Assembly (NCBI GenBank): GCA_012841735.1
Contig: DUUE01000078.1
Location: 1-27,107 of the forward strand
Origin: Bacillota bacterium
Lineage (GTDB): Bacteria > Bacillota > Dethiobacteria > Dethiobacterales > Dethiobacteraceae
Direction: 5' to 3'
Length of the DNA: 27,107 nucleotides
Part shown: piece by piece, positions 24,062 through 25,731 of the stretch
Numbering within the stretch: the stretch's first letter is position 1
How the letters are laid out: the number at the start of each line of letters is the position of its first letter
Position numbers and translations under genes: made by a program
Notes under the pieces: model-generated
Databases searched by the model: none
What the model was told of the DNA's origin: nothing
Seen by the model: the letters and a program-made list of their open reading frames with translations, nothing else

Positions 24062-24418
24062 TTACTGGATTTTCTGCAGTGTCTTGATTACATGGTCCTC
24101 TTTAAACGGCTTAATAATAAATGATTTGGCACCGCTTAAAATTGCATCCTTGACCATGTTTTCCTGACCCATGGCGGACACCATCACCACTTTCGCATTG
24201 GGATCCACTTTCATGATGGCCTTCAGCGCCTCCAGGCCGTTCATTTCCGGCATGGTAATATCAAGGGTGACGATATCCGGTTTGCACTCCAGGTATTTTT
24301 TTACCGCCGCCGCACCGTTTTCCGCTTCGCCCACAATTTCATAGCCGTGGTTCAAAAGCATATTTTTTATCGCCATCCTCATAAATGCAGCATCATCAAC
24401 GATTAAAACTCTTGCCAT
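24062..24418 (-). CDS. cheY: Chemotaxis response regulator (Bacillus-type sequence)
   Basis: MARVLIVDDAAFMRM, VTLDITMPEMNG, VSAMGQ, FIIKPF. Confidence 0.93.
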   Translation of the reverse strand: MARVLIVDDAAFMRMAIKNMLLNHGYEIVGEAENGAAAVKKYLECKPDIVTLDITMPEMNGLEALKAIMKVDPNAKVVMVSAMGQENMVKDAILSGAKSFIIKPFKEDHVIKTLQKIQ

Positions 24419-25026
24419 TTTCTCACTCTCTCTTCCCTTCTGTCAGTTATAAAAGAATTTAACAAGACTTGTAATGTGGATGCCACATAGTTTTTCAGGG
24501 AATAAGCATATTTCTGAAAACGCCATGTCAGACAGGCGGCATGAAAAAAGCCAAGAATAATTTCCGCTATTTGGGCGGCCGACAATTCGCAGGACAAAAG
24601 CCCGGCCTGCTGGGCTTTGGCGGCCAGGTCCCGGAGCGCCGTCAGGCGCCCGAAATAGATCTTTTTGATTTTCTCACGAAAATCGTCTTCACAGGCCAAC
24701 ACATCATACGACTGGGTGATTGCCGTTATCTGCGGGTAATTCTCATAATACTCGGCATAAGTTACTACATAATAAAAAATGGCCTGCAGGTAATCTTTCT
24801 GCTGCAGTGATGATGCGCTGATATCACTGTCATACTGGGCATAAAAATCAAGCACGGCATGCAGCAAATCCACTTTCTTCGGAAAATGCTTAAAGACAGC
24901 CGCTTCCGTAATGCCCTGCCTTTTGGCCACCTCCCTGGTCGAGATACCTTTAATGCCGTATTCATTGATTACATCAATGGTCGTCAATACGATCCTTTCT
25001 TTCCGGTGGAGAAATGAATAGCCCAT
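24403..25026 (-). CDS. TetR/AcrR-family transcriptional regulator
   Basis: N-terminal HTH GIKGISTREVAKRQGITEAAVFKHFPKK; 3' end overlaps the cheY start by 16 nt; RBS GGAGG. Confidence 0.92.
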   Translation of the reverse strand: MGYSFLHRKERIVLTTIDVINEYGIKGISTREVAKRQGITEAAVFKHFPKKVDLLHAVLDFYAQYDSDISASSLQQKDYLQAIFYYVVTYAEYYENYPQITAITQSYDVLACEDDFREKIKKIYFGRLTALRDLAAKAQQAGLLSCELSAAQIAEIILGFFHAACLTWRFQKYAYSLKNYVASTLQVLLNSFITDRREERVRKWQEF

Positions 25027-25040
25027 ATAACCTCCAAGTG

Positions 25041-25058
25041 AGTAAGCATTAACTTACT
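25041..25058. promoter_or_regulatory. Palindromic operator, probable TetR autoregulatory site
   Basis: AGTAAG-CATTAA-CTTACT between the sigma28 -10 box and the tetR RBS. Confidence 0.6.
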
Positions 25059-25062
25059 GTTT

Positions 25063-25089
25063 TTATCGGCACCAAAGGTTAAAACTTTA
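25063..25089 (-). promoter_or_regulatory. sigma28 (FliA/SigD) promoter for the tetR-che operon
   Basis: Minus strand TAAAGTTT (25089-25082) - 11 nt - GCCGATAA (25070-25063): exact match to the extended sigma28 consensus. Confidence 0.9.
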
Positions 25090-25123
25090 CCTTATACAGG
25101 GCAGTTTTTCTGCTTTTAGGCAG

Positions 25124-25147
25124 AAAAAAACCCGCTTTTGCGGGTTT
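25124..25147 (-). terminator. Intrinsic terminator after the HD hydrolase
   Basis: AAACCCGC-AAAA-GCGGGTTT followed by more T's on the minus strand, just after stop 25153. Confidence 0.85.
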
Positions 25148-25152
25148 ATGCG

Positions 25153-25731
25153 CTACAGTTCACCCTGAAGGCCGATCTCTGCGGCTACCGTCTGCATCCC
25201 CTTGATTGTTTCGGCAATAATTTCATCCAGTTCCATCCCCAGCAGCCGGGCGCCTTCGGCAATTACCTCCCTGTTCACGCCGGCGGCAAAGCCTTTCTGC
25301 TTCCATTTTTTCCTGACCGATTTTACTTCCGTATCCAGAATACTTTTACTGGGCCGCATCAGTGCGGTGGCGGCTATGAGCCCCGTCAGCTCGTCAATGG
25401 TATATAAAACTTTCTCCATACGCTCCACCGGCTCCACAGCGGAACATATTTTCCAGCCGTGACTGACAACCGCACGGATATAATCTTCCGGCCAGCCGTG
25501 CTCCTGCAGGATTTCGCCGGTTTTTGTGCAGTGCTCGTCCGGGTAACGTTCATAATCCAGGTCATGAATCAGCCCGATTACACCCCACTTTTCCACGTCT
25601 TCCTGAAAGAGGGCGGCAAAATGCCGCATGACCGCTTCCACGGCCAGGGCATGCTTAATGAGACTGTCATTCTTGTTATACTCTGTCAGCAGCCTGTAAG
25701 CTTCTTCCCTTGTCGGTACCTTTCCCTGCAT
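25153..25731 (-). CDS. HD-superfamily (HDIG-like) metal-dependent hydrolase
   Basis: IKHALAVE, GLIHDLDYE, AVVSHG, YTIDELTGLI; RBS GAGGTGAGG. Confidence 0.88.
   Translation of the reverse strand: MQGKVPTREEAYRLLTEYNKNDSLIKHALAVEAVMRHFAALFQEDVEKWGVIGLIHDLDYERYPDEHCTKTGEILQEHGWPEDYIRAVVSHGWKICSAVEPVERMEKVLYTIDELTGLIAATALMRPSKSILDTEVKSVRKKWKQKGFAAGVNREVIAEGARLLGMELDEIIAETIKGMQTVAAEIGLQGEL

Follow-up and report, generated by a model that had tools for sequence, protein, structure and literature searches.

We identify here an eleven-gene chemotaxis operon that is headed by a gene for a TetR-type regulator and that is probably a late, SigD/FliA-dependent transcription unit under negative autoregulation by its own first gene product. 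The operon lies on the minus strand of the window, i.e. the complete 27,107-nt stretch of DNA analyzed here, which represents contig DUUE01000078.1 of a metagenome-assembled genome (G000; 2.33 Mb in 466 contigs, 92% complete). To our knowledge, a sigma-28 promoter that is throttled by a repressor encoded on the same transcript has not been described before, and in the full-text literature searched no paper dealt with tetR heading a che operon or with SigD promoters that carry a TetR operator.

All features of the locus described in the following are located on the minus strand. A gene for an HD-domain protein (25153-25731) is followed by an intrinsic terminator (25147-25120; 8-bp stem with five G-C pairs, then a T-run), a counterpart of which was also found in the sister species by locus comparison and which is predicted to shield the che promoter from read-through. 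The promoter consists of the -35 box TAAAGTTT (25089-25082), an 11-nt spacer (25081-25071) and the -10 box GCCGATAA (25070-25063). Four nucleotides further on (AAAC) begins an inverted repeat made up of AGTAAG (25058-25053), the 6-nt spacer TTAATG and CTTACT (25046-25041), and another five nucleotides (CACTT) lead to the Shine-Dalgarno sequence GGAGG (25035-25031), which is kept in the orthologues; the distances of 4 and 5 nt given in the initial annotation are thus all correct. After TTAT (4 nt), tetR starts with the ATG at 25026 and encodes 207 amino acids up to the stop codon TAA at 24405-24403. It overlaps with cheY (118 amino acids; 24418-24062; Response_reg, 101 bits), and the remainder of the operon extends over 24042-13683 including the terminator at its end (13709-13683). 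According to Pfam assignments, tetR is followed by cheY, cheA, cheW, mcp (4HB), cheR, cheB, cheD and genes for a PAS hybrid kinase, a REC protein and an HD-GYP protein. Neighboring genes among these eleven overlap by up to 16 nt or are separated by up to 54 nt.

The reading of 25089-25063 as a sigma-28 promoter with agreement at all 16 consensus positions was confirmed by comparison with the published consensus TAAAGTTT-N11-GCCGATAA (PMC2859248), which is matched 16/16 with the 11-nt spacer. This is the sole match without mismatch in the entire 2.33 Mb of G000, where such a 16-base pattern would be expected by chance about 0.001 times, and no other match was present in the window with up to three mismatches allowed. 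In two sister species of the same genus, G001 and G002, which are represented by metagenome-assembled genomes as well, both boxes likewise agree 16/16 and are separated by 11-nt spacers unrelated to that of the window. The che promoter of the more distant relative G009 reads TAAAGATT-N12-GCCGATAG, and SigD-like promoters are also found at the orthologous che operons of five relatives from the same bacterial family that lack tetR at this position, e.g. TTAAGTTT-N11-GCCGATAA in G018.

The presence of fliA/sigD in the genome, for which the initial annotation had asked, could be established as well. A FliA/WhiG sigma factor is encoded on contig C101 (TIGR02479; 249.6 bits, cut-off 189.6), preceded by flhG-like and YcgR-like genes, and FlgM (PF04316) is encoded on C455. 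When G000 was scanned for late-gene promoters with the pattern TAAA-N15/16-GCCGATA, full matches to TAAA-N15-GCCGATA were obtained 32 nt upstream of flgM (TAAAGATT-N11-GCCGATAA) and 30 nt upstream of flgN-flgK (TAAAGATA-N11-GCCGATAA), and a site with one mismatch precedes flaG; flgM, flgN-flgK and flaG are textbook SigD targets. By all computational tests applied, the sigma-28 promoter of the che operon is real, and transcription would be expected to start about 7 nt past GCCGATAA, near 25056. An intergenic scan revealed no sigma-70-like promoter between the upstream terminator and tetR. A candidate RNA run contained 15% of the window's words but probably consists of DNA, and another run contained none.

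Three minor observations concern promoter-like sequences. Inside the 3' end of tetR, just ahead of cheY, there is a weak match to a sigma-70 promoter (CTGACA-18-GAAAAT, the second hexamer being preceded by TG; 24446-24417, minus strand), which did not exceed the level expected by chance; were it functional, che would be expressed independently of TetR. On the minus strand of C164, TGAA-N15-GCCGATAA, a SigD-like site with one mismatch, is located 172 nt upstream of an open reading frame with an EAL-like-looking N-terminus. In the stretch from the upstream terminator to the -35 box of the che promoter there is a perfect 9-bp inverted repeat, TTTTTCTGC-N6-GCAGAAAAA (25105-25113 / 25120-25128). 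This palindrome is not kept in the sister species, where the A-rich block AGAAAAA alone is retained, which may represent an UP-like element.

The annotation of the first gene as tetR was borne out by both domains of its product, as the N-terminal helix-turn-helix scored 38.5 bits with Pfam TetR_N (cut-off 24) and the C-terminal, YsiA-like domain 30.7 bits with TetR_C_4 (cut-off 21). The protein thus has the architecture of the TetR/AcrR family, a helix-turn-helix joined to an all-helical C-terminal domain within about 200 amino acids. None of the models for named TetR subfamilies, including FadR, SlmA and ScbR, is matched above its curated cut-off. An assignment of the protein as an acyl-CoA-responsive regulator of the FadR/YsiA type was rejected (NF053878, 36.4 bits against a cut-off of 200; the TetR_C_4 match is generic), and so was membership in SlmA (NF007015, 36.7 bits against 120), which is by sequence the closest relative of solved structure (E 1e-9). 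The subfamily to which the protein belongs is small (41 clusters at E<=1e-30 in a set of 1.84 billion representatives), and a close paralogue was not found in G000. Throughout the subfamily the helix-turn-helix is nearly invariant, and in the C-terminal domain residues Y93, Y94, Y97, R127 and W168 are invariant. This pattern of aromatic residues and an arginine suggests a single conserved pocket rather than a multidrug pocket.

The same residues bear on the regulatory logic put forward in the initial annotation, a strict AND gate in which pre-existing TetR holds the promoter off, so that building the chemosensory array requires both active SigD and a small-molecule inducer. TetR proteins are generally ligand-responsive, and the conserved residues would be in line with an inducer. 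However, tetR is the first gene of the very operon that it would repress, and the only promoter found for it is the SigD promoter, so that the repressor cannot be there before induction. Moreover, no ligand class can be assigned, since the models of FadR, SlmA, ScbR and others score far below their cut-offs. We therefore consider the AND gate unlikely in its strict form. Since TetR would be produced from the very promoter that it represses, the arrangement would rather correspond to a pulse or set-point device, i.e. to negative autoregulation.

The overlap of tetR and cheY by 16 nt was also found as initially described, the stop codon of tetR (24405-24403) lying downstream of the cheY ATG at 24418. 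In the window TetR ends with a tail of 11 amino acids, whose codons read through the ribosome-binding site of cheY. Tails of 11-15 residues are present in TetR of the genus and of G009, and relatives of 195-198 amino acids lack the tail. As the ribosome-binding sequence AGAGAGAGTGAG is also kept before cheY in the TetR-less relatives, the overlap results from a TetR tail that is encoded by the conserved ribosome-binding region of cheY, and it suggests that translation of tetR and cheY may be coupled. As a side observation, cheY of G009 (L056, 3580-3932) is split into two pieces in different frames, indicating a frameshift or an assembly error.

For the AGTAAG-N6-CTTACT palindrome, which had been proposed as the operator of TetR, the analysis gave a more differentiated picture. 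We estimate that about 6-7 perfect inverted repeats of the 6-N6-6 type are expected per 27 kb for this single spacing, and the palindrome is one among five short inverted repeats within 181 bases. Since such repeats are common by chance, its significance derives solely from conservation and from the match to a family operator. Of 40 loci of the TetR subfamily, 27 contain the motif AGTAA-N4-TTACT with at most one mismatch in the 90 nt that precede tetR, compared to 0.9% of random 90-nt windows, and in all motif-bearing loci the motif ends 14-23 nt ahead of the ATG. The corresponding core in the window is AGTTA-ATGC-TTACT (25054-25041). It has the 5-N4-5 geometry conserved in the family, and the perfect 6-N6-6 repeat, found in G000 alone, is created by an additional AGTAA that is shifted four bases to the left relative to this core. 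The original proposal thus stands insofar as the palindrome lies within a conserved TetR-type operator, and does not stand for the exact 6-N6-6 repeat; as its spacing differs from the N4 geometry of the family, the register in which it would be bound is uncertain.

Alignment within the genus defines the conserved unit as a 21-bp pseudo-palindrome, AGTAAGTTA-N4-TTACT(A/C)AC, whose central four nucleotides vary. In the window this putative operator reads AGTAAGTTA-ATGC-TTACTCAC (25058-25038) and spans the expected start site near 25056. Judged by comparison, the palindrome is part of a predicted TetR-type operator that is conserved over the start site, and the position of the motif, kept in the 27 of 40 loci, points to a palindromic operator at the regulated promoter. 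As a tentative sign of covariation at most, the types of helix-turn-helix (STRE or STK) and half-site (AGTAA or AGTGA) agree in six of nine cases, which are confined to one clade. The predicted operator of this TetR subfamily can now be read from sequence.

A metagenome scan with the 21-bp pattern yielded 120 matches that are mostly due to chance. One of them is the flgB locus of a sister species, and three immediately precede genes for other TetR proteins whose helix-turn-helix is related. The latter sites, L175 (4697-4717), L192 (which has the same sequence as L175) and L150 (525-545), stem from unrelated organisms. Their TetR proteins are distant, being 27% identical along the whole sequence or 43% identical within the helix-turn-helix, and the genes head open reading frames that resemble efflux operons, judged by the sizes of the reading frames alone. 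A lone half-site TTACTAC was noted in L054 and L055 (G019 and G010) directly after TCCGATAT, past the -10 box of a TetR-less che promoter; it may be the remnant of a lost operator or due to chance.

Because the element is placed at the extreme 5' end of the expected transcript, it might alternatively act as an RNA stem-loop that stabilizes the mRNA or tunes translation, without being a protein operator. A C-to-T change in the sister species that retains a G-U pair would fit to this explanation. However, the predicted fold is weak (-6 kcal/mol, z -0.85, with 33 of 200 shuffled sequences as good), the structures vary between species, and the Rfam search gave no match above noise, and an RNA element was rejected as the main explanation on these grounds. 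In addition, it is the sequence of the half-sites itself, beyond mere pairing, that is kept across distant genera, and the element also occurs far upstream of flgB as well as upstream of unrelated TetR genes. Taken together, a function of the palindrome in RNA appears most improbable to us.

The second copy of the operator is the basis for a possible extension of TetR control to the flagellar genes. Searching G000, G001 and G002 with the genus element AGTAAGTTA-N4-TTACTAAC (21 bp) and up to three mismatches, we found exactly two matches with two mismatches or fewer per genome, namely the site at tetR-che and a site upstream of flgB. In G001 and G002 both copies agree in 17/17 positions, i.e. 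with 0 mismatches, the flgB copy being AGTAAGTTA-GTGT-TTACTAAC. In G000 the outer-left half of the flgB copy is lost and the site reads AAGTTAGT-TTTT-ACTAACTT (C38, L049, 667-689), a perfect 8-N4-8 repeat that is predicted to form an 8-bp hairpin ahead of a T-run; owing to these features, a weak terminator activity is also conceivable. The copy is located in the 340-nt gap that separates the terminator of flaG from flgB, with which the main flagellar operon begins; a sigma-A promoter was not identified for flgB. The leader of flgB contains a c-di-GMP-I riboswitch (82.8 bits) with the aptamer at 835-922 and the terminator at 932-953 of L049.

As G000, G001 and G002 are closely related, their twin sites do not count as independent cases. 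In the TetR-less relatives the riboswitch of flgB is present, and the palindrome is absent at flgB as well as at the che operon. Five distant Clostridia with a TetR-led che operon showed no convincing operator upstream of flgB; the twin-site arrangement may be confined to one genus. The flgB locus of G009 was not found, and the three c-di-GMP riboswitches of this genome precede other genes.

That AT-rich sequence has given rise to both copies by chance, or that the element is bound by another factor while TetR regulates something else, might be argued from the AT-richness of the element in a genome of 53% G+C. Against this explanation speaks the co-occurrence of the operator with the TetR subfamily in 27 of 40 loci, together with the lack of the palindrome at both che and flgB where TetR is missing. 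The identity of the two sites in G001 and in G002, neither of which has a further match with up to two mismatches genome-wide, and the lack of a close TetR paralogue in G000, point in the same direction. This alternative is in our view very unlikely, and the repressor probably links the expression of chemotaxis and flagellar genes. Furthermore, the motility genes are tied to c-di-GMP at several points, as shown by the riboswitch at flgB, the HD-GYP phosphodiesterase gene at the end of the che operon and the PilZ nature of the YcgR-like gene before fliA.

According to the autoregulatory model favored here, RNA polymerase containing sigma-28 would initiate near 25056, and TetR would be translated from the resulting transcript in coupling with cheY. 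TetR, presumably as a dimer, would then occupy the pseudo-palindrome (positions -2 to +19, approximately), thereby blocking initiation or promoter escape. Expression would require active SigD, i.e. the export of FlgM, and would subsequently be capped at a set-point that a ligand could raise. Chemotaxis proteins are needed in fixed ratios and only after the flagellum exists, and the strongest possible sigma-28 promoter throttled by a repressor from the same transcript would be a clean regulatory design. At the element upstream of the flgB operon, TetR would probably feed information on the expression of late genes back to the early flagellar operon, which presumably leads to sigD. In a broader version of the model, TetR made at the sigma-28 stage would bind the twin operators, and the resulting late-to-early loop would couple the dosage of the array to flagella and, via the HD-GYP protein, to c-di-GMP, and might answer a ligand conserved in the family. 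We regard this version as a serious possibility with the balance tipped slightly against it. If functional, the twin site at flgB would add a type of feedback that is new for the flagellar hierarchy of Firmicutes.

Class-3 chemotaxis genes are transcribed once FlgM frees sigma-28. The promoter in the window is of the same TAAAGTTT-N11-GCCGATAA type as those of the class-3 che operons of E. coli and Salmonella (motAB-cheAW, tar-tap-cheRBYZ) and of the late SigD genes in Bacillus and Clostridioides; for C. difficile, SigD promoters including that of flgM have been described (PMC3865298). In contrast to these operons, which neither encode a repressor nor have an operator at the start site, the operon in the window combines a perfect consensus with a TetR protein of its own. 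With regard to the repressor, a helix-turn-helix protein of about 200 amino acids and a palindromic operator over the start site are reminiscent of TetR/tetO, QacR/IR1 and AcrR, and the closest relatives of the window's TetR show the classical TetR-type layout behind TTGACA-N17-TATAAT. Unlike in the classical TetR systems, the promoter in the window would be read by sigma-28, tetR is the co-transcribed first gene and not divergent, the target is a chemosensory operon rather than an efflux or catabolic gene, and a second site is present at the flagellar operon.

The binding site SBS of SlmA, GTGAGTACTCAC (PMC3020112), has a GTGA-N4-TCAC layout that equals the layout of the family operator (AGTAA/AGTGA-N4-TTACT/TCACT). 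SlmA, however, is a gammaproteobacterial nucleoid-occlusion factor and not an operon repressor, and the window's TetR is not a member of this group. Additional regulators are known at both types of promoters considered here, as CRP acts at the sigma-28-dependent aer promoter, which it activates from -49.5 (PMC2859248), and RstA acts at the flgB promoter of C. difficile (PMC6414698). Sigma-28 promoters and clostridial flgB promoters can thus each carry the site of an extra regulator. RstA belongs to another protein family, however, and neither CRP nor RstA is encoded by the late operon that is regulated.

The linkage of this TetR subfamily to chemotaxis genes extends across the Clostridia. In a comparison set of 34 loci from genomes of other species, with TetR relatives of 34-88% identity, cheY, cheA or cheW directly follows tetR in 28 loci, and two more have a che context; the same tetR-che arrangement was found in four further assemblies. 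The TetR-led che-phosphorelay clusters of other Clostridia share the order tetR-cheY-cheA-cheW-mcp(4HB)-cheR-cheB-PAS hybrid kinase-REC with the window, as confirmed for the first genes in the 28 of 34 loci and through the PAS hybrid kinase and REC in Anaerocolumna, where the cluster is a second Che system. Whereas in the other Clostridia the TetR-led cluster is an extra Che system (two to three CheA per genome) under sigma-A control, it is the only Che system in the window's genome, under a sigma-28 promoter and with an HD-GYP gene at its end. G000 (as a 92% complete assembly), G001, G002 and G009 each encode a single CheA. Therefore, the cluster in the window is most likely the flagellar chemotaxis system, for which sigma-28 control is expected.

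The statement of the initial annotation that TetR operators normally occur at sigma-A promoters is true for the window's own subfamily. Of 36 loci outside the window's bacterial family, 27 have a sigma-A promoter (TTGACA-N16-17-TATAAT) before tetR, with 12/12 matching positions in 19 loci and 11/12 in eight. The -10 box ends 28-52 nt ahead of the ATG, and the operator motif is positioned just downstream. From these comparisons, sigma-28 promoters at TetR-led che operons appear to be confined to the window's bacterial family. In a CheA tree rooted with the family's other CheA class, the sigma-28 lineages, two with tetR and several without, form a basal grade, whereas the crown is made up of the sigma-A-driven clusters led by tetR in other Clostridia. 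This topology suggests an ancestral TetR linkage with subsequent losses and a single exchange of the promoter class; since the root lies on a long branch, the direction of this exchange is uncertain. The swap of a sigma-A for a sigma-28 consensus, or the reverse, around a fixed operator and repressor represents modular rewiring as it occurs in nature, and synthetic circuits could be built after this model. The pairing of a promoter of maximal strength with an autorepressor is also unusually consistent among the sigma-A loci, as the nineteen 12/12 promoters in L015-L046 and L075-L080 all precede the operator.
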